The notes: a model not told the origin generated them from the sequence alone. DNA of 56,538 bases from Candidatus Niyogibacteria bacterium RIFCSPLOWO2_12_FULL_41_13 (GCA_001821615.1 MHMS01000006.1:1-56538); one strand, 5' to 3'. Counted from the stretch's first letter, positions 1,842-56,538 are shown. Numbers and translations: made by a program.

Positions 1842-2717
1842 TTAAATTTTTTTATTTTTTAAATATCGTTTGAATTCGCCTTTGACCTCTTTGTGTTTCA
1901 AACCATAATCAACAATTGTTTTTAAAAACCCAATTTTTGAACCGCAGTCGTACATTGTTCCTTCATATTCCAAACCGTATATTGGTTTGGTTTTTAACAG
2001 CTTTTTAAACGCGTCGGTCAAATAAAGCTCTTGTTTTTTTAAATATTTCGGAAGTTTTTTTAATTTTTCCAAAATTTGGAAGATTTCCGGAGTAATTATA
2101 TATCTGCCGGCGAGCGCCAGATTTGAAGGCGCTTTTTCAGGCTCGGGTTTTTCCGCCATTCCGTCAATTTTGTATAATCTTTTTTCTATTTCTTTTCCTC
2201 TTATCACGCCGTATTTATGAACCTCCCTCTTTGGAACTTTTTTCAGGGCGACAACCGGCGCGTTATATTTTTCGTAAATATCAACTAATTGTTTAATAAC
2301 CGGTTTTTCGGAATCCGCTATCATATCGCCGAACAAAACAGCGCATGGTTCGTTATCAATCAAATGAGCGGCGTAAAGCAAAGCATCGCCGTTTCCTCTC
2401 GGCTCTTTTTGCCTGACATAAGAAAAATTCGCCATATCGGAAATTCTTTTAATTTCGTCGTATAGATTTTTTTTGCCGTTTTTAAGAAGAGCGCTTTCAA
2501 GTTCAAACGAATAATCAAAATGGTTTTCTATAGCGTGTTTGCCCCGGCCGGTGACAAAAATTATATCTTTAATGCCGGAAGCGACTGCTTCTTCTACAAT
2601 GAATTGGATAACCGGCTTATCAACAATCGGAAGCATTTCTTTCGGCTGGGCTTTTGTCGCCGGCAAAAATCTCGTGCCGAAACCCGCGACAGTGATAATC
2701 GCCTTTTTAATTTTCAT
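1842..2717 (-). CDS. galU: UTP-glucose-1-phosphate uridylyltransferase
   Basis: 291 aa. N-terminal AGFGTRFLPATKAQPKEMLPIVDKP nucleotidyltransferase motif typical of GalU. Confidence 0.9.
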   Translation of the reverse strand: MKIKKAIITVAGFGTRFLPATKAQPKEMLPIVDKPVIQFIVEEAVASGIKDIIFVTGRGKHAIENHFDYSFELESALLKNGKKNLYDEIKRISDMANFSYVRQKEPRGNGDALLYAAHLIDNEPCAVLFGDMIADSEKPVIKQLVDIYEKYNAPVVALKKVPKREVHKYGVIRGKEIEKRLYKIDGMAEKPEPEKAPSNLALAGRYIITPEIFQILEKLKKLPKYLKKQELYLTDAFKKLLKTKPIYGLEYEGTMYDCGSKIGFLKTIVDYGLKHKEVKGEFKRYLKNKKI

Positions 2718-2718
2718 A

Positions 2719-2857
2719 CCCAGTAAGACAATATCAAAATCCGCCTGCGTTCATCCGCAGTAGGACTTGTTAATGAATAATAGCTTAAATAGGGCTGGCT
2801 GTTCATTATGTTTATATAGAGATGGCGGGGATGAACTTTTGATATTGTCTTACTGGG
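2719..2857 (-). mobile_element. 139-bp TIR element, divergent-core member of the CCCAGTAAGAC family
   Basis: Perfect 21-bp TIRs CCCAGTAAGACAATATCAAAA (2719-2739) and its reverse complement (2837-2857). CATA lies on both outer flanks (2715-2718, 2858-2861). The core is unrelated to the 142-bp copies. Confidence 0.8.
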
Positions 2858-5042: not shown

Positions 5043-5107
5043 CCCCGTTAGAAGTCCGATGCGCTCCCGCATTAATAGTCGCCTTGGGCGACTTACTTCT
5101 AACGGGG
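5043..5107 (-). mobile_element. 65-bp miniature TIR element (CCCCGTTAGA family)
   Basis: 13-bp perfect TIR CCCCGTTAGAAGT (5043-5055) / ACTTCTAACGGGG (5095-5107). Flanks are TTCA (5039-5042) and TTCG (5108-5111). Confidence 0.7.
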
Positions 5108-5560
5108 TTCGTACTTTATTTCTATCTTGTCGTTGTCTCGCATAATATAGTTTTCAAATTCGCCGCTTTCTTTGCCGTTAATAAACATTTTTACTTTTCC
5201 AGTTTCGCCGTTGCAAAATTCAAAAATGCAGTTTGAATCAAATCTTTTTTTCCAAATTTTAAAAAATTGGCTAAGTTTAATATCGTTTTCTCTCACCGCG
5301 CGGCTGAATTCCATATGAATTATATTGTCGGCTTCATGAGTATGAAGGGGCAGATGAATCGCGCCAATACCGACATTTGCCGGAATTTCCTGTTTTTCGC
5401 CTTTGATATAAATTGAAAGCTCTGAATGCCAGTGAATTCCATTTTTGGAAATAAGTTTGTTATTCTCGCCATTGCTCGTTTTGCTCGCGGCGGAATACCA
5501 AATAAAAAAACCGGCAATCGCCGCCAAAATAATCGCAACTAAAATCGCCTTTTTACTCAT
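5099..5560 (-). CDS. membrane-anchored His-rich hypothetical protein
   Basis: 153 aa, N-terminal TM, HWHSELS...HTHEADNIIHME motifs. The last two codons and the TAG stop lie inside the element TIR. Confidence 0.55.
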   Translation of the reverse strand: MSKKAILVAIILAAIAGFFIWYSAASKTSNGENNKLISKNGIHWHSELSIYIKGEKQEIPANVGIGAIHLPLHTHEADNIIHMEFSRAVRENDIKLSQFFKIWKKRFDSNCIFEFCNGETGKVKMFINGKESGEFENYIMRDNDKIEIKYEPR

Positions 5561-11611: not shown

Positions 11612-12151
11612 TTATTTTGTCACCATCGCGCTGATTTCCAATTCAATTTTCGGCGTTTTTTCTGAATTAGTTTCAATATAAATGGTTCTTTTTGCCAATC
11701 CCACTCCCGAAGGCCCATGAGCCGCAGGGTCAAATTCCGCTTTTACTTCCACTGACTCGTTTGGCTTTATTTCTATATTTGCGATTGGCGAACCGCCGCC
11801 ATGCCCGGGCATTCCGAATGGTCCGTATTTTTTTCCGGAAGCGTCAATAATCAAAGCGCTTGTGCACATGCAGGAGGTGTAGATTTTTTTGATTGAAACC
11901 GCGCTTTCGCTTTCATTTTTAATTTTAAACGCGTGAGAAACATTTCCCTTACTCATTGAGATTGTTCCGAAATCAAAATTTTTTTCTTCCGCGATAAGAA
12001 TTCCGTTCGCGTCGGGAATTTTTTCAGCCCTTTGGCTATCTTGCGGATTAAGATTGGCAAATAAAATAATCGCGCCAACCGCAAGAACGGCTATAATTCC
12101 GATAATAATGTTTTTTGATTGATTCACCCCGTTAGAAATTTGTGCGTTCAT
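11612..12151 (-). CDS. DUF1573-like secreted protein
   Basis: FDFGTISMSKGNVSHAFKIKNESE...IKKIYTSCMCTSA matches the DUF1573 pattern. The current ATG (12149-12151) lies inside a mobile element. The track start at 12181 reads through element sequence. Confidence 0.65.
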   Translation of the reverse strand: MNAQISNGVNQSKNIIIGIIAVLAVGAIILFANLNPQDSQRAEKIPDANGILIAEEKNFDFGTISMSKGNVSHAFKIKNESESAVSIKKIYTSCMCTSALIIDASGKKYGPFGMPGHGGGSPIANIEIKPNESVEVKAEFDPAAHGPSGVGLAKRTIYIETNSEKTPKIELEISAMVTK

Positions 12152-12210
12152 AGTTAAATTGATTATTATGATGCGCCCCATTAGATAAATTGATTAAATT
12201 TCTAACGGGG
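12127..12210 (-). mobile_element. 84-bp miniature TIR element (CCCCGTTAGA family)
   Basis: 15-bp perfect TIR CCCCGTTAGAAATTT (12127-12141) / AAATTTCTAACGGGG (12196-12210). 4-bp direct flank repeat TTCA (12123-12126, 12211-12214). Confidence 0.8.
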
Positions 12211-25458: not shown

Positions 25459-25757
25459 CTCCGCGGGTAGGATTCGAACCTACGACCAAGTGCTTACAAC
25501 TTTCTCATTATTACTAACGAGGTTGGACTATATCTTTACCATACCAAATTTTTAATTCGGATTAGGTATCTCGGTATCTAGTCTCTACGGCGCCCGAGCA
25601 CATAAAGCATTATGTGCTCGGTTCCCACGGTATTACCGAGCACATAACAAGTTTATGTGCTCGGCTTCACCGTTATCCCAAGATGTTCATTCCAAAGTTT
25701 CCTTTGGAAGCTGCAAGTTTTTTACAGGCACCTGCGCTACCGCTGCGCTACCGCGGA
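25459..25757 (-). tRNA. tRNA-Asn(GUU) interrupted by a group I intron in the anticodon loop
   Basis: 5' exon 25724-25757 (TCCGCGGTAGCGCAGCGGTAGCGCAGGTGCCTGT) and 3' exon 25459-25496 (TAAGCACTTGGTCGTAGGTTCGAATCCTACCCGCGGAG). The spliced product is a cloverleaf with U1-A72, G73 and anticodon loop CUGUUAA. Confidence 0.8.
25497..25723 (-). ncRNA. group I (IC3-like) intron, 227 nt, no ORF
   Basis: The 5' exon ends in U, paired as U.G in P1 (CUGU/GCAG). The intron ends in G. The core GUAGAGACUAGA is identical to the Azoarcus/Anabaena tRNA intron core as recalled from memory. There is a P9-like hairpin CUCGUUA-GUAA-UAAUGAG. Confidence 0.75.
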
Positions 25758-25863
25758 ATATTTTCCTATATTCAACTTAAATCAAATTTAATTTTTGGTC
25801 AAGTTTTTAAATTGACTTTTGAATTTTGACTTGTAATTTTGCCTTTTGCCTTTTGATTTTTTA

Positions 25864-27093
25864 TCAATATCCTTCAAGGCGATACGCCAGCTTGTGCTTT
25901 TTTATTTTTTCCAGCGCCTTCATTTCAATTTGCCGGATTCTTTCACGGGTTACGCCGAATTCTTTGCCGACTTCTTCCAAAGTGTAAGACACGCCGTCTT
26001 CCAAACCGAATCTCATCGCCAAAATTTTCTGCTCTCGGGGCGCGAGCTCGGAAATGATTTCTTTTATCTGGTCGCGCAAAAATTTGAGGCTTGTCGCTTG
26101 TTCGGGAGAAAGAGTTTTCTCGTCGGGCACGAATTCCCGAATCGTCACTTCTTCTTTTTCTTCCGGTTCTCCCACGGGCGTTTCCAAAGAAATAGTGTCT
26201 TGCGAAATTTTCTGCAGATGGCGGACTTTTTCAACCGGCAAATTCATTTCAGCCGCGATTTCCTGAATAAACGGGTCGCGGCCGAGTTCTTGCGTCAATC
26301 TCCTGACCGCTTGCTGGTATTTGCTTAAAATTTCAACAATATGAACCGGTAGCCGTATGATTTTTCCCTGGTCGGCCAACGCTCTGGTGATTGCCTGGCG
26401 TATCCACCAGGTGGCATAGGTTGAAAATTTAAAACCCCTTCTCCAGTCAAATTTTTCAACCGCCCGGAAAAGCCCCAGATTTCCTTCTTGAATCAAATCA
26501 AGCATAGTCAGATTGGAACTGCGTCCGAGATAACGTTTGGCGATTGAAACTACGAGTCGCAGATTCGCCAAAATCAGCTTGTTTTTCGCTTCTTCATCTC
26601 CTTGTTCAATCCTTTTTGATAAATCTTTTTCTTCCTGAAAAGTAAGAAGTTTAATTTTGCCGATTTCCCGCAAGTAGGATTGAATGGAATCCATGGAGAG
26701 ATGCTCCATAACATGTTCGGGTTCGGCGCTCGCGCCTGATTTTTTCTTTTCTTTTTCAAGTTCAAAGGGGCTTTTTTCTTCTATAATTTCAATATTAGAG
26801 CCCCTTATTTTTTCAAATGTTTCTTCCAAAAATAAAATATCTTCTTCAATGTTCGGAAAGTAAGTTAAAATTTCGCCGTGGGTCACAAATCCCTTTGCCC
26901 TGCCCTTTTTTATAAGCTCTTTCAATTTTTCTTCTTTTTTGCCGGCTTTCAGCGTTTTTTCGGCGACTGTTTCCAACTTGACCTTTTTTGGCCTTCCTCT
27001 TTTTTTGCCCGCCTGCCGGTAGGCATTGCCCGCCTGAATTTTTTTTGAAATTTTGGCGGATGCGGATGATTTTTTCGGTCTTCCTCTTTTCAT
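25864..27093 (-). CDS. rpoD: RNA polymerase sigma-70 factor with AT-hook-like N-terminus
   Basis: Regions 2-4 are conserved ([48 protein letters not shown]). Confidence 0.93.
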
Positions 27094-27094
27094 A

Positions 27095-27236
27095 CCCAGT
27101 AAGACTAAATCGAATATTTCTTGCTAAATCCGCAAGCGGATATTCGACTATTATTATACTTAATTTTAATTTTGTAATAAAACATGTTTATACCACGCAA
27201 GAAACTAGATTTAGCATTCGATTTTGTCTTACTGGG
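27095..27236 (-). mobile_element. 142-bp TIR element, CCCAGTAAGAC family (copy A)
   Basis: TIRs are 21 bp with one mismatch. CATA on both flanks (27091-27094, 27237-27240). Nearly identical to copies at 29014 and 47347. Confidence 0.85.
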
Positions 27237-27251
27237 CATATTTTTTAATCG

Positions 27252-29000
27252 CTAAACATTAAGTTCTTTGCTTAATTTATGAAACTCGTCAAGGCATTTT
27301 TTGATATTTTCGCCGTCTCCGGCTATTTCGCATTCGCGTATTTTTTGGCTCAACGACAAAAGTTCGTCCTTTAAATATTCCCGCTTCAATTCCATCGCCA
27401 GTTTATTCAACTCTTCCTCGGGCTTGTCCAGATTGCTGTAATAAAGTTCGGCTTCCAGGGCTAATTTATTAAGATAGTGCTCCGAAGCGATTTCAGTCCC
27501 GCTATTCAACGCTTTTTCAAGTATGAATTTTCTTGCCGGAGAAAAATAATTTTGCCAATCTTTATTAAAAAAAGCGGCAAGTTCTTTTTTCCAAAGTAAA
27601 ATTCCGATTAATTTTTCTTCAAGCAAATCGCGGCGGGAAACGGAAGACGGCTTGCGGCTATTTTCGGTTTCAACGCTTTCCGCGCTATCGCTATTCCCTC
27701 TTTTTAATTTTTTTGAATATTTGGCGAGACTTTGCCAAACCGCTTCTTCTTTTAAACTCAAAAAAACAGCCACTTCTTTGAGCCAATGCGCTTGTTCAAT
27801 ATTGCTTGCGATATTCGCGATGTAAGGAATAATGACTCTTTCGGTTTCTTTCGCGAGTTCTCTTTTTTCTTTAACTTTTTCGCTTAAAAAATCCAGATAA
27901 TATCTTATAATCGGTTTCGCCCGCTTGATGGCGAGAAGCCAAGTTTCGGGATTTTCTTTTATTATATCAGCCGGGTCGTCTTTGTCAATCGGGAGAATCT
28001 TGACATCAAAATTATTTTTTAGAGCCAAGTCCACTCCCCTTTTAGTTGCCGCGATTCCTCCGGCGTCCGGGTCAAGAGCAATGTATAAATTGGGCGAGAG
28101 CCGTTTTAATTTAGCTAATTGGTCTTCGGTCAAAGCCGTCCCCGAAACCGCGACTGTGTTTAAAAATCCCGCCTGGTGCGACATAATGACATCCATCTGC
28201 CCTTCAACCAAAACGCAAAAATTGTTTTTTCTGATTTCGTTTTTTGCGAAATTCAAGCCGTAAAGCGCTTTTGATTTATCGTACAAAAGAGTGTTCGGGG
28301 TATTGATGTATTTTGCCGGTTTTTCTTCCTCTTTTAAATCCTTTCTCAAATCTTTTTCAAAAATTCGTCCGGAAAAACCGATTGTTTCGCCAAGCTGATT
28401 GAAAATTGGAAACATTATTCTGGCGCGGAACCGGTCGTAATAAGAAACGCTTCCCGCTTCTTCTTTTTTCACGACGAGCCCCGAATTTTCAATTTCTTCT
28501 TTTGAAAATCCGCCCTGCGAAAGAAATTCATAAATTTCGTCCCAGTTCGGCATAGCGTACCCTATCTCAAAAGTTTCAATTGTTTTGTCTTTCAATCCCC
28601 GCTCTTTCAGATACTCTTTGACATCCGAGCGCCGTTTAAAATTTTCTTTGTAGAATTCTTTGGCTTTGTTGAGAATTTCCGAAAGCCGGGTTTTTTGAGC
28701 GGCCAATTTTTCATCAACTTTCTGAAGCTTCACGCCGGTCATTTTCGCCAAAATTCTAAGCGATTCCGGAAACTCAACTTTTTCCATTTCCATCACGAAT
28801 CGGAAATGGTCGCCTCCGCGAGAACATCCGAAACAATGCCAAATCTGGCGTCCCGGCGAAACATAAAACGACGGAGTTTTTTCTTTGTGGAACGGACAGA
28901 CGGATTTGAAATTCACTCCGGCTTTGTCCAGTTTGATGTAAGACTGGATTAAATCAATAATATCCAGTTTTTCTTTGATTTGTTCAATTGGAGAGAGCAT
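27252..29000 (-). CDS. dnaG: DNA primase
   Basis: Zinc-finger CPFHKEKTPSF...HCFGCSRGGD and a TOPRIM region. Confidence 0.92.
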   Translation of the reverse strand: MLSPIEQIKEKLDIIDLIQSYIKLDKAGVNFKSVCPFHKEKTPSFYVSPGRQIWHCFGCSRGGDHFRFVMEMEKVEFPESLRILAKMTGVKLQKVDEKLAAQKTRLSEILNKAKEFYKENFKRRSDVKEYLKERGLKDKTIETFEIGYAMPNWDEIYEFLSQGGFSKEEIENSGLVVKKEEAGSVSYYDRFRARIMFPIFNQLGETIGFSGRIFEKDLRKDLKEEEKPAKYINTPNTLLYDKSKALYGLNFAKNEIRKNNFCVLVEGQMDVIMSHQAGFLNTVAVSGTALTEDQLAKLKRLSPNLYIALDPDAGGIAATKRGVDLALKNNFDVKILPIDKDDPADIIKENPETWLLAIKRAKPIIRYYLDFLSEKVKEKRELAKETERVIIPYIANIASNIEQAHWLKEVAVFLSLKEEAVWQSLAKYSKKLKRGNSDSAESVETENSRKPSSVSRRDLLEEKLIGILLWKKELAAFFNKDWQNYFSPARKFILEKALNSGTEIASEHYLNKLALEAELYYSNLDKPEEELNKLAMELKREYLKDELLSLSQKIRECEIAGDGENIKKCLDEFHKLSKELNV

Positions 29001-29013
29001 TTTTTATTATATA

Positions 29014-29155
29014 CCCAGTAAGACTAAATCGAATATTTCTTGCTAAATCCGCAAGCGGATATTCGACTATTATTATACTTAATTTTAATTTTGTAATAAA
29101 ACATGTTTATACCACGCAAGAAACTGGATTTAGCATTCGATTTTGTCTTACTGGG
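29014..29155 (-). mobile_element. 142-bp TIR element, CCCAGTAAGAC family (copy B)
   Basis: Nearly identical to copy A (at least one substitution, 27206 a vs 29125 g). Flanks are TATA (29010-29013) and CATA (29156-29159). Confidence 0.85.
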
Positions 29156-29166
29156 CATATTAAATT

Positions 29167-29817
29167 TTAAACCTTTTTTCCGCGTTTTTCCCGCCATTCT
29201 TTTATTTTTTTATGGTGTCCCGACAAAAGGATTTTTGGAACGGCGTATTTTTTATTTTTCCATTTTATAATTTCCGGCCTTGTATAGACCGGATATGAAC
29301 CTTTGATTTCTTCGAGCGAGCCGTATTTGCCCAAAACTCCGGGAATATGGCGAACCAAAGCGTCAATAAAAACCATTGCGGGAAGCTCGCCTCCGGTTAA
29401 AACGTAATCCCCTGTTGAAACTTCCTCCGCTTTTAAAATTTTCTTGACTCTTTCGTCAATTCCTTCGTAGCGTCCGCAAATCAAAATAAAATTATCGTAT
29501 TTTTCGGCGAAATTTCTTGCCATTTTTTGATTAAATGTTTTTCCTCTCGGCGAAAAAATAATAATTTTTGAATTTGCGTTTTGCGATTTGCGCTTTGCTT
29601 TGTCCGCCGCTTTAACTATCGGTTCAACTTGCATCACCATCCCTGGCTCTCCTCCATAAGGCCGAGTGTCAACCTTGCGGCGCTTGTCGCTTGTAAAGTC
29701 GCGGGGATTATAAAATTTTACTTTGAGAAATTTATTTTTGGCCCGGCTCAAAATTGAACTGTTTAAATAAGAATCAAATGATTCCGGAAAAATCGTGATG
29801 ATATGAAAATTTTTCAT
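29167..29817 (-). CDS. trmD: tRNA (guanine37-N1)-methyltransferase
   Basis: MKNFHIITIFPESF start and GGELPAMVFIDA...LLSGHH motifs. The track ORF is extended upstream to 29856. Confidence 0.9.
   Translation of the reverse strand: MKNFHIITIFPESFDSYLNSSILSRAKNKFLKVKFYNPRDFTSDKRRKVDTRPYGGEPGMVMQVEPIVKAADKAKRKSQNANSKIIIFSPRGKTFNQKMARNFAEKYDNFILICGRYEGIDERVKKILKAEEVSTGDYVLTGGELPAMVFIDALVRHIPGVLGKYGSLEEIKGSYPVYTRPEIIKWKNKKYAVPKILLSGHHKKIKEWREKRGKKV
29573..29600. repeat. 4 x heptamer tandem repeat (TTTGCNN) inside trmD
   Basis: tttgcgt tttgcga tttgcgc tttgctt. Confidence 0.7.
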
Positions 29818-29889
29818 ATATAAAAACCAAAAACCACGCGTTTTTTTAAGCGGCATGGTTTTTGTTTTAAAACTACTTTTCAGAATTTC

Positions 29890-39627: not shown

Positions 39628-41808
39628 ATGTTTCTCCAAGAACCTCTTGAAAAATATCTTTATCTGAACAAAAAACAAAAATTCGTTCTTCAAAAAGCCG
39701 GATTTAATAAAGTTGAGGATTTGCTCCGCCATTTTCCGAACGACTATAAAAAATTCGTTTCGCTGAAAAAAATACGGGAATTGAAACCGGATGAAGAAGC
39801 GAGAATAGGGGCGAAAATTTTATCAAGCAAACTCAAGAGAAGCTGGAAAAAAAGAATTCCGGTTGTTGAATTTTTGGTTCAGGATGAAAGCGGAATTCTG
39901 CGGATTACTTGGTTCAATCAGCCGTATTTGGCAAAAACATTAAAACAAGGAGAATTTTATTATTTCACCGGAAAAATTTATCGCGACAAATCCGGTTCAT
40001 TGATGATAAATCCCGTCTGGGCGCTTTCCGCCGATAGGCAAGAAAAAGAAATTGAGGAAATTTCCAACGAAGAAAAATTTTATCCGGTTTATCCTGAAAT
40101 TTACGGATTATCCAGCCGATGGATTGCCGAAAAAATCAAAAAACTGCTCTTGGAAATCAAAGATATTGATTTGCCCGAAATTTTGCCGAAATTCATCCTT
40201 CAAAAATATCATCTTCCGGATTTTAAAACCAGCGTTTTCGCGGCTCATCAGCCGAAAAATCCGAAACATTTTGAAGCCGTCAAAAAACGCTTTTCTTTTG
40301 AAGAAATTTTTTTATTGCAATTGTCGCGGCTTAAAGAAAAAATCTCCCGCAAAAAACTTCCGGCCTTTGAAATGAAAATCAGCCGGAAAGAAATAAATTC
40401 ATTCATTAAGTTTTTTGATTTTGAACTGACAAACGCTCAAAAAAAAGCCGTTAAAACGCTCTTGGACGACCTAAAAAAACCGGAATCAATGACAAGATTG
40501 CTTGAAGGAGATGTTGGCTCCGGAAAAACGGCGGTTGCGATTATTATTTCTTACGCCGCGCTAAAATCCGGTTATCAAATCGCTTATATGGCGCCGACCG
40601 AAGTTTTGGCCCGCCAAATTTACGAAGAATTTATAAAATTTTTAAAACCCTTCCGCGCCAAAATCGGACTCCTTACTTCTTCTCAAAGCCGAAAATATCC
40701 GTCAAAAGCTTTTCCAAACAAAGATACGCAAATTTCAAAAAATCAGCTGTTGAAATGGGTTTTAGGCGGCGAAATTCCCGTTTTAATAGGAACTCACAGT
40801 TTAACCTATGAAAAAGTGAAATTTAACAAGCTTGGGCTTGTCATTATAGACGAACAGCACCGTTTCGGAATCAAACAAAGAGGGCTTTTAGCAAAAAAAA
40901 CTTCAAAAGAATTGCCCTCCATTCCCCATCTTCTTTCAATGACCGCCACGCCGATTCCAAGAACATTGGCGCTTACCATTTACGGCGACCTTGATTTGAC
41001 ATTGCTTGATGAAATGCCCCCAGGCAGAAAAAAAATCAAAACCATAATCGTGCCGCCGGAACAGAGAGAAAGAGCCTATGAGATGATGAGAGAAGAAATA
41101 AAAAACGGAAGGCAAGCGTATGTGGTCTGTCCGAGAATAGAACAAAAATCGCAAATCGCAAAGCGCAAAGCGCAAAGCGCAAAATTTGAAGAAAAACTTC
41201 ATCAAGAACCGGAGGAAGAAATAAAAGCGGTAAAGAGCGAATATAAAAGATTGAGCGAGAAAATTTTTCCGGAATTAAAACTTGGGATTTTACACGGCCG
41301 GCTTTTGCCAAAAGAAAAAGAAGAAGTCATAAAAAAATTTAAAAAAGGCGAAATTCAGATTTTAACAAGCACTTCGGTTATTGAAGTGGGCATAAATATC
41401 CCGAATGCCACAATGATTTTAATAGAAGGCGCGGAAAGATTCGGTTTAGCGCAATTACACCAATTAAGAGGCCGGGTCTTGAGAAGCGTCTATCAGCCGT
41501 ATTGCTTTATTTTCACCGAACATTCATCGCAAAAAATACTGGCTCGCTTAAACGCCTTGACTAAATCGCAAAACGGATTTGAACTCGCGGAATACGATTT
41601 AAAATTCCGCGGTCCCGGGGAACTGACCGGCGCAAAACAATGGGGAATTTCTGATATCGGAATGCTCGGCCTTAAAAACCTCAAAATGGTTGAAGCGGCG
41701 AGAACCGAAGCCGAAGAACTCCTGCGAGAAGATTTTGAACTCAAAAATTATCCGTTGTTAAAGGAAACAATTTCAAAATTATCGCGTTCCCCCGTCCATT
41801 TAGAATAA
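39628..41808 (+). CDS. recG: ATP-dependent DNA helicase RecG
   Basis: Wedge/OB N-terminus, GDVGSGKT Walker A, DEQHRFG, and helicase C motifs. The start is taken at MFLQEPLEKY. Confidence 0.9.
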   Translation: MFLQEPLEKYLYLNKKQKFVLQKAGFNKVEDLLRHFPNDYKKFVSLKKIRELKPDEEARIGAKILSSKLKRSWKKRIPVVEFLVQDESGILRITWFNQPYLAKTLKQGEFYYFTGKIYRDKSGSLMINPVWALSADRQEKEIEEISNEEKFYPVYPEIYGLSSRWIAEKIKKLLLEIKDIDLPEILPKFILQKYHLPDFKTSVFAAHQPKNPKHFEAVKKRFSFEEIFLLQLSRLKEKISRKKLPAFEMKISRKEINSFIKFFDFELTNAQKKAVKTLLDDLKKPESMTRLLEGDVGSGKTAVAIIISYAALKSGYQIAYMAPTEVLARQIYEEFIKFLKPFRAKIGLLTSSQSRKYPSKAFPNKDTQISKNQLLKWVLGGEIPVLIGTHSLTYEKVKFNKLGLVIIDEQHRFGIKQRGLLAKKTSKELPSIPHLLSMTATPIPRTLALTIYGDLDLTLLDEMPPGRKKIKTIIVPPEQRERAYEMMREEIKNGRQAYVVCPRIEQKSQIAKRKAQSAKFEEKLHQEPEEEIKAVKSEYKRLSEKIFPELKLGILHGRLLPKEKEEVIKKFKKGEIQILTSTSVIEVGINIPNATMILIEGAERFGLAQLHQLRGRVLRSVYQPYCFIFTEHSSQKILARLNALTKSQNGFELAEYDLKFRGPGELTGAKQWGISDIGMLGLKNLKMVEAARTEAEELLREDFELKNYPLLKETISKLSRSPVHLE
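41149..41183. repeat. 5 x heptamer tandem repeat (NCGCAAA) inside recG
   Basis: tcgcaaa tcgcaaa gcgcaaa gcgcaaa gcgcaaa. Confidence 0.8.
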
Positions 41809-55987: not shown

Positions 55988-56404
55988 TTACAACCCTTCG
56001 CAGTTTCCAGCCGGTTTATATCCCGCTTTTTCCGCCTCTTCTTTGGAAGAAAAATAAATTTTATTTTCTTCTTTTATTCTTTTCGCTCCTGAACACCAAG
56101 TATAGTGGTAAAGATTGCTGTTTTTGCTCCCGACTAAGATTCTATTCTGTTCTTTATTTTCTGTAATTTGCGATTTGCTATTTGCTATTTGCGCTTTGCT
56201 ATCCGCGCTTTGCGATTTATCGGCGATTTTTTCTTCTCCAACCTCTTCAAACCAAATCGGATATTTTTGCTCTTCCAAAACCGACATCCTTCCCAATCCA
56301 AAAGCGATAAAAGCCATTAAAATAAAACTCGCGCTTATAAATAACTCTTTTTTATTGTCGTCAATGAATTTCTTGACTTTCTTTATTTTCTCAATTAAAC
56401 TCAT
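55988..56404 (-). CDS. membrane-anchored protein with C-terminal Cys-pair domain
   Basis: 138 aa with an N-terminal TM. C-terminal NLYHYTWCSGAKRI...FSSKEEAEKAGYKPAGNC. Confidence 0.5.
   Translation of the reverse strand: MSLIEKIKKVKKFIDDNKKELFISASFILMAFIAFGLGRMSVLEEQKYPIWFEEVGEEKIADKSQSADSKAQIANSKSQITENKEQNRILVGSKNSNLYHYTWCSGAKRIKEENKIYFSSKEEAEKAGYKPAGNCEGL
56167..56215. repeat. 7 x heptamer tandem repeat (TTTGCNN) inside a CDS
   Basis: tttgcga tttgcta tttgcta tttgcgc tttgcta tccgcgc tttgcga. Confidence 0.8.
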
Positions 56405-56455: not shown

Positions 56456-56538
56456 CCCAGTAAGACAAAATCGAATGCTAAATCTAGTTTCTTGCGTGGT
56501 ATAAACATGTTTTATTACAAAATTAAAATTAAATATAA
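56456..56538 (+). mobile_element. CCCAGTAAGAC-family element (copy D), opposite orientation, cut by window end
   Basis: The plus strand reads TATG|CCCAGTAAGACAAAATCGAATGCTAAATCTAG..., the reverse complement of copies A-C. Confidence 0.8.

Follow-up and report, generated by a model that had tools for sequence, protein, structure and literature searches.

A 298-bp GIY-YIG element related to start-codon-docked 142-bp repeats: a possible minimal bacterial transposon of a type not yet described

Introduction

In Candidatus Niyogibacteria bacterium RIFCSPLOWO2_12_FULL_41_13 the primase gene dnaG lies, within the trmD-dnaG-rpoD gene string, between two almost identical elements of 142 bp. What are these elements, how do they come to stand at the start codons of essential genes (rpoD, dnaG, rpsP) or no more than 11 nt away, and what moves them? 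Five enzyme chemistries are known among bacterial IS (DDE, DEDD, HUH, serine and tyrosine), and the candidate enzyme described below would belong to none of them: a 298-bp element whose only gene encodes a GIY-YIG nuclease suggests a bacterial transposon of minimal size and of a type not yet described. The window is the whole stretch of DNA that was analysed, 56,538 nucleotides in length. The gene names of the first-pass annotation agree with the Pfam matches obtained for trmD (tRNA_m1G_MT), rpoD (Sigma70 regions 1.1-4) and dnaG (Toprim/DnaG).

Copies of the 142-bp element inside the window

The members of the family found in the window, and the genes that they adjoin, are the following:

2719..2857, minus strand: member D, a diverged family member of 139 bp with TIR CCCAGTAAGACAATATCAAAA
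25864..27093, minus strand: rpoD, host gene, whose ATG (27093-27091) belongs to the target duplication of copy A
27091-27094 and 27237-27240: the two TATG duplicates of copy A, read on the gene strand
27095..27236, minus strand: MITE copy A, 142 bp with 21-bp TIRs, in the interval between the dnaG stop and the rpoD ATG
27105..27239, minus strand: ORF of copy A, 44 codons, starting at the upstream duplicate ATG and ending in a TAG 11 nt before the rpoD ATG
27252..29000, minus strand: dnaG, flanked by copies A and B, its product being 100% identical to DnaG of Candidatus Niyogibacteria RIFCSPLOWO2_12_FULL_41_13
29014..29155, minus strand: MITE copy B, 142 bp, in the trmD/dnaG interval, with gene-strand flanks TATG (5') and TATA (3')
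47325..47342, minus strand: solo 5'-TIR remnant of 18 nt with TATG on each side, between copy C and the rpsP ATG
47347..47488, minus strand: MITE copy C, 142 bp, downstream of the SMC-like gene 47481..49748
56456..56538, plus strand: MITE copy E, cut by the window end, with 5' flank TATG

The near-identity from which the annotation had started is confirmed, copy A matching B at 141/142, C at 137/142 and E at 82/83 positions. So are its 21-bp TIRs with one mismatch, the 21-nt pattern being found 10 times in the window against 0.01 expected from shuffles. Flanks read on the plus strand are CATA/CATA at A, C and D and TATA/CATA at B, as had been reported for A and B, which on the gene strand gives TATG...TATG. 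Copy A directly adjoins the rpoD ATG, also as described, and the 3' end of copy B lies 11 nt before the dnaG ATG (29000). The 5' TIR of copy C now supplies the stop codon of the SMC-like gene (the TAA of CCCAGTAAGAC), and the TATG downstream of the 18-nt remnant holds the start codon of rpsP (S16) at 47323. Member D adjoins the ATG of an NTP-transferase (GalU-like) gene, 1842..2717, and the TGA of its 47-codon ORF overlaps that ATG (ATGA). Copy E is oriented away from the divergent gene 55988..56404.

The 44-codon frame of copy A, noted in the annotation with its TAG 11 nt before the rpoD ATG, gave no Pfam match, and its peptide, used as a census probe, retrieved four clusters only, because gene callers rarely call the ORF. 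As to structure, the RNA has a predicted fold of -51.1 kcal/mol (z = -8.1), in which TIR pairing dominates. A possible outward promoter within the MITE has only 9 of 12 consensus matches and is not clearly conserved in D-type elements. Member D, the 18-nt remnant, a sister family and a GIY-YIG element at 44078-44357 (see below) are absent from the first list of features.

Evidence for mobility

Copies A and B are best read as members of a mobile MITE family, as had been proposed. The dnaG-rpoD junction is empty in four relatives (L143-L146), whose DnaG proteins are 91, 87, 85 and 67% identical, and all four junctions retain a single TATG at the rpoD start; the MITE reading is upheld because relatives at this distance (67-91% DnaG identity) show an empty junction that keeps one TATG. 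The annotation had held that conservation of the copies at orthologous positions would speak for a regulatory RNA; the comparison was run and the relatives' junctions proved empty, which favours a mobile element. Moreover, in L103 a sister MITE of 140 bp is nested inside a family copy, and removal of the insert and of one CTAA restores a canonical 142-bp copy, so that filled and empty states form an exact pair with a 4-bp duplication. L110 and L121 form a further presence/absence pair, with a junction that is not a clean TSD.

The family shows the following features of MITEs: lengths of 136-143 bp, 21-bp TIRs with one mismatch, a TSD of fixed length (4 bp), and dispersed, polymorphic copies (33 distinct sites, the empty junctions L143-L146 and the L110/L121 pair), located before more than 20 unrelated host genes. 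TATG stands on both sides at 25/33 sites, and matching duplications other than TATG (TAAT, CAGA) also occur. The possibility that the element carries its own ATG and makes no real TSD is ruled out by the matching TAAT, CAGA and CTAA duplications together with the nested copy. No population polymorphism of copies A and B was found among the examined contigs with identical DnaG, 23/23 of which carry both. At some loci one flank is common and the other different, which may reflect assembly chimeras at the repeat.

Insertion at start codons

The catalogue comprises 33 distinct sites from aquifer metagenomes, the host genes being named by eye from N-terminal translations. The 3' flank is TATG at 28/33 sites, and 23/33 adjoin the ATG of an ORF with 45 codons or more, each of the 23 being co-oriented with the gene; both the TATG preference and the orientation bias suspected from the window are thereby borne out. 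Host genes include rpoD, ftsZ, gyrB, serS, pth, ddl, mreB, rpmH, rpmE and rplJ. About 10% of the TATG sites in the window are gene starts, and at least 24 of 30 at gene starts would be expected by chance with p ~ 4e-19. Insertion is accompanied by a 4-bp target duplication, mostly TATG, and in the surviving copies the ATG of the TATG is the host start codon, with the element co-oriented with the gene. Insertion at TATG, as claimed from the sequence, stands as a preference and fails as a rule, since TAAT, CAGA and CTAA are duplicated too. The start-codon bias could result from purifying selection in a gene-dense genome instead of from targeting.

In 27 of the first 33 copies catalogued the frame runs on to a stop that either overlaps the next ATG or lies 9-11 nt upstream of it, a set that includes 139-bp and 142-bp variants and the in-frame nested insert. 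L108 and L132 have no upstream ATG, while L129 (rpmE) and L100:3550 have early stops; coupling cannot be obligatory, because all four sit at gene starts regardless. Selection for an open MITE frame is no more than suggested, the test being weak (2.7 stops expected against 0 observed) and one reverse-strand frame being open too. In the predicted RNA fold the host AUG is locked into the TIR hairpin. A TATAAT-like box stands a few nucleotides before the ATG of several genes, and most of the listed starts lack a Shine-Dalgarno motif.

A 298-bp element encoding a GIY-YIG nuclease

A search for a longer, ORF-bearing copy with the same TIRs, as the annotation had suggested, led to 298-bp elements at L120:4451-4748 and L147:688-985, which share 22/22 nt with the MITE at each end. 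That such elements reside in the same genome as the MITEs of the window is suggested only by the common metagenome series and a matching GC of 40%. Both encode a 96-aa GIY-YIG nuclease in a frame that is opened by the flanking ATG and closed by a stop that precedes the host ATG by 11 nt, though translation might instead begin at an in-frame GTG/ATG at codon 9. The protein has PF01541 (GIY-YIG, E = 6.8e-16) as its sole domain, and the catalytic Tyr, Tyr, Arg and Glu (among them Y14, Y25 and E71) do not vary across 40 homologues, the His being nearly invariant. The AF2 model (pLDDT 86) finds its closest PDB folds in UPF0213 (1ZG2) and Slx1. Matches at E <= 1e-3 amount to 5661 clusters (50% identity).

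The MITE interior (~98 bp) is unrelated to the nuclease gene and only the 22-nt ends are common, which rules out the MITE as a deletion derivative of that gene. When 241 million metagenome records were scanned with 20 nt of the TIR, every element retrieved measured 136-298 bp and none was longer. Among GTDB representative genomes a 17-nt TIR pattern gave 91 single hits in unrelated taxa, roughly the chance level, and the Patescibacteria hits (L024, L025) were not elements on inspection. No transposase was found within 10 kb either side of dnaG. The earlier statement that the window encodes no transposase holds for classical transposases and fails to take in the apparently intact GIY-YIG nuclease ORF at 44078-44357.

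Sister elements and generality of the layout

That ORF belongs to one of three sister elements in the window, the TIR of the sister family being (C)CCCGTTAGA:

5043..5107, minus strand: sister mini-element of 65 bp with a 13-bp TIR, placed where ORF 5099..5560 has its stop codon and terminator
12127..12210, minus strand: sister mini-element of 84 bp with a 15-bp TIR CCCCGTTAGAAATTT and TSD TGAA
44078..44357, minus strand: sister GIY-YIG element whose 13-bp TIRs, TCCCGTTAGAGAT, are perfect, the flanks being (A)TGAG/(A)TGAG

The element at 12127..12210 sits in the ATGAA start of a DUF1573 gene, where its terminal G and the TSD recreate a GTG start. In the GIY-YIG element the ORF 44075..44362 encodes a 95-aa GIY-YIG protein, its ATG overlapping the scpB stop and its TGA overlapping the ATG of a downstream S11 carboxypeptidase gene. 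The same layout, i.e. a flanking TATG (TGAG in the window copy), a TIR, an in-frame GIY-YIG ORF and a stop near the host ATG, is found in L136, L142, L148, L160 and L163, besides L120 and L147, with the stop ranging from a 4-nt overlap to 21 nt before the host ATG. Ends are complete in 8/9 sampled CPR GIY-YIG loci, L162 having no recognisable 3' TIR. In these 8/9 loci, which represent different subfamilies, the TIRs are the first and last nuclease codons and co-diverge with the protein; the N-termini MPS, MPR and MPG are the translated TIR end ATG|CCCNGT.

Proposed mechanism and alternative explanations

On this basis it is likely that copies A and B are non-autonomous MITEs, satellites of the exceptionally small 298-bp element whose only gene is the 96-residue single-domain GIY-YIG nuclease. 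We infer that the nuclease mobilises the family, that the start codon used by the element ORF is that of the host, and that translational coupling lets ribosomes re-initiate on the host gene. The upstream duplicate ATG would keep the native initiation context of the host gene after insertion, many genes here appearing leaderless or coupled to the preceding gene, and would open the element frame, which codes for the nuclease in the 298-bp form and is a filler ORF of 44 codons in the MITE. In copy A that ORF would relay translation to rpoD. The frame would stop inside or just after the 3' TIR, from a 4-nt overlap to 21 nt before the downstream ATG; since it ends at the 3' TIR, terminating ribosomes would melt the TIR hairpin that buries the host AUG and then re-initiate on the host gene. 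Insertion at essential genes would in this manner be made tolerable, and the nuclease could be expressed with no promoter or ribosome-binding site of its own.

The enzyme probably recognises the TIR fold-back or cruciform and would cut at the base of that structure: its fold is nearest to UPF0213 and to Slx1, a nuclease of branched DNA, and SsnA, which is similar in size, cuts ssDNA beside a hairpin repeat. We know of no GIY-YIG enzyme that carries out strand transfer. A broader proposal, to which we give slightly less than an even chance, is that the CCCNGT-ended elements form a new prokaryotic transposon class, in which the transposase is a single-domain GIY-YIG nuclease of ~96 aa, the ORF starts from the duplicated host start codon, ribosomes are handed on to the host gene in return for insertion into essential genes, and the 142-bp copies are satellites. 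No autonomous DNA transposon smaller than this one of 298 bp would then be known.

It is unlikely that these are ordinary MITEs moved in trans by an unseen DDE-type transposase encoded elsewhere in the genome or the community, the GIY-YIG gene being a passenger or selfish gene in a MITE shell. TIRs and a short TSD do typify DDE elements, the MITE resembles the GIY-YIG element in its 22-nt ends only, MITEs can carry passengers (such as the nested insert of L103), and the portion of the genome examined is 56.5 kb. However, the 241 million metagenome records yielded no family element above 298 bp, no transposase lies within 10 kb of dnaG on either side, and TIRs that form the terminal nuclease codons and co-diverge with them (8/9 loci) are unexpected for a passenger.

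A non-transposing or domesticated Ssn-like system, in which a host ssDNA nuclease recognises the repeats and modulates recombination or DNA uptake while the repeats spread by recombination, is decidedly improbable. It would fit the size (94 vs 96 aa) and the single domain shared with SsnA, active-site residues that fall at SsnA Y6/Y17/E64 (Glu within one residue) once 8 TIR-encoded residues are subtracted, the flanking of Ssn genes by their own repeats (PMC11893778), and the fixation of A and B in 23/23 examined contigs with identical DnaG. Against it, 4-bp duplications at unrelated sites, the nested insertion and the empty sites are signatures of insertion, and NTS units are self-contained oriented hairpins, whereas each end here is half of a TIR pair.

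There is very little probability in a free-standing homing endonuclease cassette, by which empty alleles would be cut and copied by homologous repair and the MITEs would be decayed cassettes. GIY-YIG is a classic homing-endonuclease fold, insertions lie at conserved housekeeping genes, and the best NCBIfam match of the nuclease is a group I intron endonuclease model (TIGR01453), at a score of 24 that is far below the cutoff of 56. Yet homing concerns one cognate site and leaves no TSD, and the TSD evidence, at more than 30 unrelated sites with 4-bp duplications, largely refutes this reading; furthermore, no DNA-binding domain exists beyond the 96-aa core, and the MITE interiors are not decayed nuclease genes. 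Finally, a conserved cis-regulatory structured RNA of the trmD-dnaG-rpoD operon, hardly credible despite the very stable fold (z = -8.1) and the fixed polarity upstream of genes, is refuted by insertion polymorphism, the orthologous junctions being empty in relatives, the element having TSDs and a nested copy and standing before more than 20 unrelated genes, the Rfam search giving no match at the elements, and TIR pairing alone explaining the stability.

Significance

If the preferred reading, a TIR/TSD element carrying a GIY-YIG nuclease as its only gene, is true, it would add a sixth class to the IS enzymes. It would also provide a function for thousands of small Patescibacteria genes annotated as 'GIY-YIG nuclease family' or, wrongly, as 'excinuclease ABC subunit C'. 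Docking at start codons suggests a way for selfish DNA to survive in genomes that are tiny and densely packed with genes, by borrowing initiation signals and passing on ribosomes with no gene disruption. In practice, the element repeats break metagenome assemblies and create spurious small ORFs, and gene ends are altered, the upstream stop lying sometimes within the TIR. Matched pairs of nuclease and TIR could be a source of compact nucleases specific for a sequence or a structure, as has been proposed for the Ssn enzymes.

Comparison with known systems

The closest precedent is that of the Ssn nucleases and their NTS/SRM repeats (SsnA of Neisseria meningitidis; Chenal et al. 2025, PMC11893778). 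Both systems have a single-domain GIY-YIG protein of ~94-96 aa, a gene with its cognate repeat on each side, and a repeat present in many dispersed genomic copies; compared by residue positions, Y14/Y25/E71 become Y6/Y17/E63 after subtraction of the 8 TIR-encoded residues, the Glu of SsnA being E64. They differ in that NTS/SRM are self-folding, oriented hairpins of 20-50 nt, whereas here there are two halves of a 21-bp TIR, not individually palindromic, whose ends are part of the first and last nuclease codons. The Ssn paper reports no TSD, start-codon docking or miniature 140-bp derivatives, and does not mention Patescibacteria (PMC11893778). The literature searched for a GIY-YIG TIR transposon or MITE, or for a start-codon-targeting MITE, gave nothing beyond that paper.

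Among known MITEs, the Correia/NEMIS, RUP and RPE families have 100-150 bp, TIRs, a short TSD and many copies, are co-transcribed and may contain open frames, and the Rickettsia palindromic elements (RPE) insert in-frame in genes (PMC10969869). Those MITEs are tied to DDE transposases (e.g. IS630-like, with a TA TSD) or are partnerless, in contrast to the family described here; its 4-bp duplications include CAGA, which contains no TA, and are not those of IS630/Tc1-mariner MITEs. The literature searched describes no MITE that docks at start codons with a relay ORF, and none that is paired with a GIY-YIG gene. The IS200/IS605 elements, with REP/RAYT and PATE, offer another likeness, combining a very small nuclease-type enzyme with short structured repeats, probably acting on an ssDNA fold-back and inserting beside a specific tetranucleotide. 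They have, however, an HUH/Y1 enzyme, subterminal hairpins and no target duplication; the true 21-bp TIRs and 4-bp TSDs found here set the family apart from PATE/REP-type repeats, which have neither.

Selfish GIY-YIG genes located between or before essential genes are also known as I-TevI and the Seg proteins of T4. These homing enzymes differ in their long DNA-binding domains, one cognate site and lack of TSD and TIR, whereas the present nuclease is a 96-aa core associated with more than 30 sites with TSDs. In sequence and fold the nuclease is matched best by Slx1 and the UPF0213 proteins (BH0048, EF2693), the latter being the nearest solved structures by both sequence and fold (1ZG2, E = 4e-6 by sequence; Slx1, TM ~0.6). 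UPF0213 proteins have no assigned function and no described mobile context, and Slx1 is a repair enzyme dependent on its partner Slx4 and on a RING domain. The substrates that Slx1 cleaves are branched and stem-loop DNA, and such an activity would be suited to cleavage of a TIR cruciform at its base.

Elements in the window

The near-identical 142-bp elements of this Patescibacteria/CPR genome, which originates from the Rifle aquifer, are very probably MITEs, and they lie in the window together with more distant relatives (loci on other contigs bear L-numbers). The DnaG of the window is 100% identical to that of Candidatus Niyogibacteria bacterium RIFCSPLOWO2_12_FULL_41_13.

Genes and elements of the window
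2719-2857: MITE member D, diverged, 139 bp; adjoins the ATG of an NTP-transferase gene
5043-5107: sister-family mini-element, ends (C)CCCGTTAGA
12127-12210: sister-family mini-element, ends (C)CCCGTTAGA
25864-27093, minus: rpoD, last of the row trmD, dnaG, rpoD
27095-27236: MITE copy A, 142 bp; fills the dnaG/rpoD gap
27252-29000, minus: dnaG, middle of the row
29014-29155: MITE copy B, 142 bp; fills the trmD/dnaG gap
29167-29856, minus: trmD, first in the row
44078-44357: sister-family element with gene; GIY-YIG nuclease ORF
47325-47342: solo-TIR remnant, 18 nt, between copy C and the rpsP ATG
47347-47488: MITE copy C, 137/142 positions as in A
56456 to window end, plus: MITE copy E, truncated; 82/83 positions as in A

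The structural description given by the first-pass annotation was borne out; member D, the solo-TIR remnant, the mini-elements of the sister family and the element with a gene are additions to it. A and B, claimed to be almost identical, differ at a single position of their 142 bp, and the similarity extends to C (137/142) and the truncated E (82/83). The window contains 10 matches to the 21-nt ends, CCCAGTAAGAC(T/A)AAATCGAAT, as compared with 0.01 expected, and the flanks on the gene strand read TATG...TATG (TATG...TATA for copy B). As had also been stated, copy A directly adjoins the rpoD ATG, and a 44-codon frame that opens at the upstream TATG traverses it and closes with a TAG 11 nt 5' of that ATG. 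Furthermore, a pattern scan found six CCCNGT-type TIR pairs in the window as against 0.04 in shuffles.

Mobility of the family

Searching metagenome contigs for a degenerate 20-nt TIR brought up 44 loci, which de-duplication reduced to 33 distinct insertion sites of this MITE family; the GTDB representative genomes scanned for the TIR gave chance-level matches only. All the data come from metagenome assemblies.

The proposal of a MITE-like mobile family is upheld by four kinds of evidence, the first of which also decides against a cis-regulatory RNA, the alternative named in the first-pass annotation, which would be conserved at orthologous positions. In four relatives (L143-L146, with DnaG 91, 87, 85 and 67% identical), the dnaG-rpoD junction is uninterrupted, with one TATG each at the rpoD start; in two of them, this TATG and the dnaG stop overlap (ATGA). 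This absence of the insertion, together with the lack of any Rfam match to the MITE copies, led to the rejection of the regulatory RNA. All 23 contigs read with DnaG identical to that of the window have both A and B, which are fixed in this population and recent at genus scale.

Secondly, a 286-bp locus (L103:3174-3459) is a canonical MITE split by a nested 140-bp sister MITE (TIR CCCCGTCAGACAAAATG, 20/22). Removal of the insert and of one CTAA restores a 142-bp copy identical to A at 136/142 positions, so that the nested insertion is an exact 4-bp duplication. Moreover, since two copies have matching flanks other than TATG on both sides (TAAT in L115, CAGA in L131), what flanks the elements is a true TSD and does not belong to them. 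Finally, one site is filled in L110 (103-241), reading TA[element]CAT, whereas L121 (13419-13667) is empty with GG between near-identical flanks; the junction is not clean, and either an excision footprint or divergence between strains could account for it. The site is flanked by a terminator on one side and a leaderless-looking efp promoter on the other, and the L110 element is reversed there. In some sets of loci (L098/L101/L121, L105/L121 and L101/L127/L133), one flank of a 139-bp copy is common and the opposite flank different, which may reflect either copies that have recombined or chimeric assembly at a repeat as long as a read.

Target site and orientation

TATG is found at the 3' flank in 28/33 distinct sites and on both sides in 25/33. 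When the bias in target and orientation was checked statistically, as had been suggested, 23 of the 33 sites proved to adjoin the ATG of an ORF 45 or more codons long, the asymmetric element ends being co-oriented with the gene in every case (23/23). Since only about 10% of the window's 326 TATG sites are gene starts, the enrichment is far above chance (p ~ 4e-19); it may be due to targeting, or to the survival of harmless insertions only. About half of the first-ATG starts in the window are preceded by T, which offers many TATG targets. The hosts confirmed by Pfam are rpoD, rpsP and the NTP-transferase gene, while ftsZ, gyrB, serS, pth, ddl, mreB, rpmH, rpmE, rplJ and the genes for ribosomal proteins L25 and S6 were read from N-terminal translations. 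On the other side of the element, the upstream gene now stops at a TAA within the 5' TIR in five catalogued copies (window C, L096, L120, L132 and L134), and likewise in L136, of a different subfamily.

A GIY-YIG-bearing partner

No classical transposase was found within 10 kb on either side of dnaG. The search for a longer, ORF-bearing copy with the same TIRs led to two 298-bp elements (L120:4451-4748 and L147:688-985), whose 22 nt at either end are exactly those of the MITE; the metagenome-contig TIR scan found none longer than 298 bp. Their 96-codon ORF, with its frame set by the flanking ATG, ends at the same TAG 11 nt 5' of the next gene's ATG and encodes a GIY-YIG catalytic domain (PF01541, E = 6.8e-16); this is the candidate master element. 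An internally deleted copy is located at rpmH (L102:8853-9084). An intact 298-bp copy may reside in the same genome as the MITEs, to which the same metagenome series and the 40% GC point.

Homologues of the nuclease are small (85-134 aa), mostly unnamed or annotated as "GIY-YIG nuclease family protein" or "excinuclease ABC subunit C", and occur in Niyogi-, Nealson-, Portnoy-, Levyi- and Roizmanbacteria and other Patescibacteria. An exhaustive search gave 5661 clusters at 50% identity with E <= 1e-3 and 788 with E <= 1e-10; the MP(S/R/G) N-terminus typical of this clade is found only in a subset. In 40 homologues the catalytic Tyr14, Tyr25, Arg35 and Glu71 are invariant, and His39 nearly so. 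The AF2 model, which is confident (pLDDT 86), has a disordered, TIR-encoded N-terminal tail; among solved structures, it is nearest in fold to UPF0213 BH0048 and the nuclease domain of Slx1.

Nine GIY-YIG loci of different subfamilies were sampled, and eight share a common design (L120, L147, L136, L142, L148, L160/L161, L163 and window 44078-44357), the ninth, L162, having no recognisable 3' TIR. In this design, an ATG-containing 4-bp repeat brackets the element; it is TATG except in the window copy, where it is (A)TGAG. The TIRs measure 13-22 bp and start with CCCNGT or CCTAGT, or, in the window copy, with TCCCGT, which has one C less. The nuclease is in frame with the upstream ATG, and its stop lies anywhere from 21 nt 5' of the host ATG to an overlap of 4 nt (ATGA). 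At 44078-44357, the nuclease overlaps scpB, ATG on stop codon, and also the next gene, a carboxypeptidase, TGA on ATG. TIR divergence parallels that of the nuclease proteins. Translation of the nuclease may also start internally, since codon 9 is an in-frame GTG or ATG. The GIY-YIG element is rather likely to be the partner of the MITE family.

Another small GIY-YIG gene, 48% identical (L104:6349-6579, minus), has in front of it no TIR but a GC-rich hairpin, GTGAGGGG-TGATTA-GCCCCTCAC, a layout nearer to the Ssn/NTS hairpins.

Proposed mechanism

According to the proposed relay, the upstream duplicate ATG would retain the native initiation context of the host gene, and ribosomes starting there would read the element frame and stop within the 3' TIR. 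The predicted fold of the MITE RNA pairs the TIRs in a long helix burying the host AUG (about -51 kcal/mol, z = -8.1); the terminating ribosome would open this helix and re-initiate on the host gene. The frame is open to a stop 9-11 nt 5' of, or overlapping, the next ATG in 27 of the 33 first catalogued copies, including the 139-bp and 142-bp variants, between which there are over 20 substitutions besides a 3-nt indel, the D-type with an ATGA overlap and the in-frame nested insert. Against the relay, L108 and L132 have no upstream ATG, and L129 and L100:3550 have early stops; the stop-avoidance test of the MITE frame was weak, one reverse frame being open too. The chances that such a relay operates are about even.

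As to initiation in the window, TATAAT-like boxes lie about 6-10 nt 5' of the ATG in several genes (e.g. upstream of 5560, 17574, 19066 and 39628), and Shine-Dalgarno motifs are missing from most listed starts, strong GGAGG sites being in the minority, which suggests widespread leaderless mRNAs. Other genes overlap the one before them. Both situations bear on the native initiation context that the upstream ATG would retain.

As regards movement, the best lead is that the nuclease resembles Slx1 and SsnA, a 94-aa enzyme that attaches to single-stranded DNA at a hairpin and cleaves a few nt 5' of it (PMC11893778); the nuclease may cleave the TIR fold-back at the base. The combined explanation, of MITE, GIY-YIG partner and relay, is considered quite likely.

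Other features of the window

Directly 3' of rpoD, a group I intron (RF00028, 59.9 bits; 25504-25733, minus) splits the anticodon loop of a tRNA gene spanning 25478-25765 (minus), for which ARAGORN made no call. Two hairpins within the intron, CCGAGCACATAA-N-TTATGTGCTCGG at 25596-25619 and 25638-25662, resemble the 15-bp TIR AGCACATAATTTATG flanking a third kind of small GIY-YIG gene (L142:1190-1417). Inverted repeats of 54 nt, 89% complementary (19537-19590/24162-24215), enclose a 4.6-kb block with a HinfI-like restriction-modification pair, an AdoMet decarboxylase gene and DUF3326. The strain contig L156 differs 3' of rpoD, so that the block may belong to an island that varies or moves. A 92-nt direct repeat, 92% identical (38008-38099/39182-39273; also 37644-37695/39149-39200), carries promoter-like TTGACA and TATTCT boxes 5' of small genes near a ParE-toxin region. 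Tandem heptads ATTTGCG/ATTTGCT with the complement AAAGCGC occur at three places (56159-56214, 41137-41185 and 29572-29599).

Comparison with known systems

Membership of several known classes was rejected: IS630-type elements, because the TSD is of 4 bp, including CAGA, and not TA; IS200/IS605-type elements, because true TIRs and 4-bp TSDs are present; homing endonucleases, because the protein is a 96-aa core only and more than 30 sites have TSDs; and riboregulators, on the empty orthologous sites and the lack of an Rfam match. No description of a GIY-YIG transposon was found in the literature searched.

The Correia, RUP and RPE families of MITEs are alike in size and in TIR/TSD logic, but have neither a GIY-YIG partner nor start-codon docking. 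The closest precedent is the Ssn/NTS system of SsnA-type nucleases and their cognate hairpin repeats, whose authors noted that NTS-ssnA-NTS resembles an insertion sequence; however, its repeats are hairpins, and no TIRs, TSDs, start-codon docking or Patescibacteria were reported for it (PMC11893778). Beyond the MITE identity, the analysis adds a candidate master element and the design around start codons.
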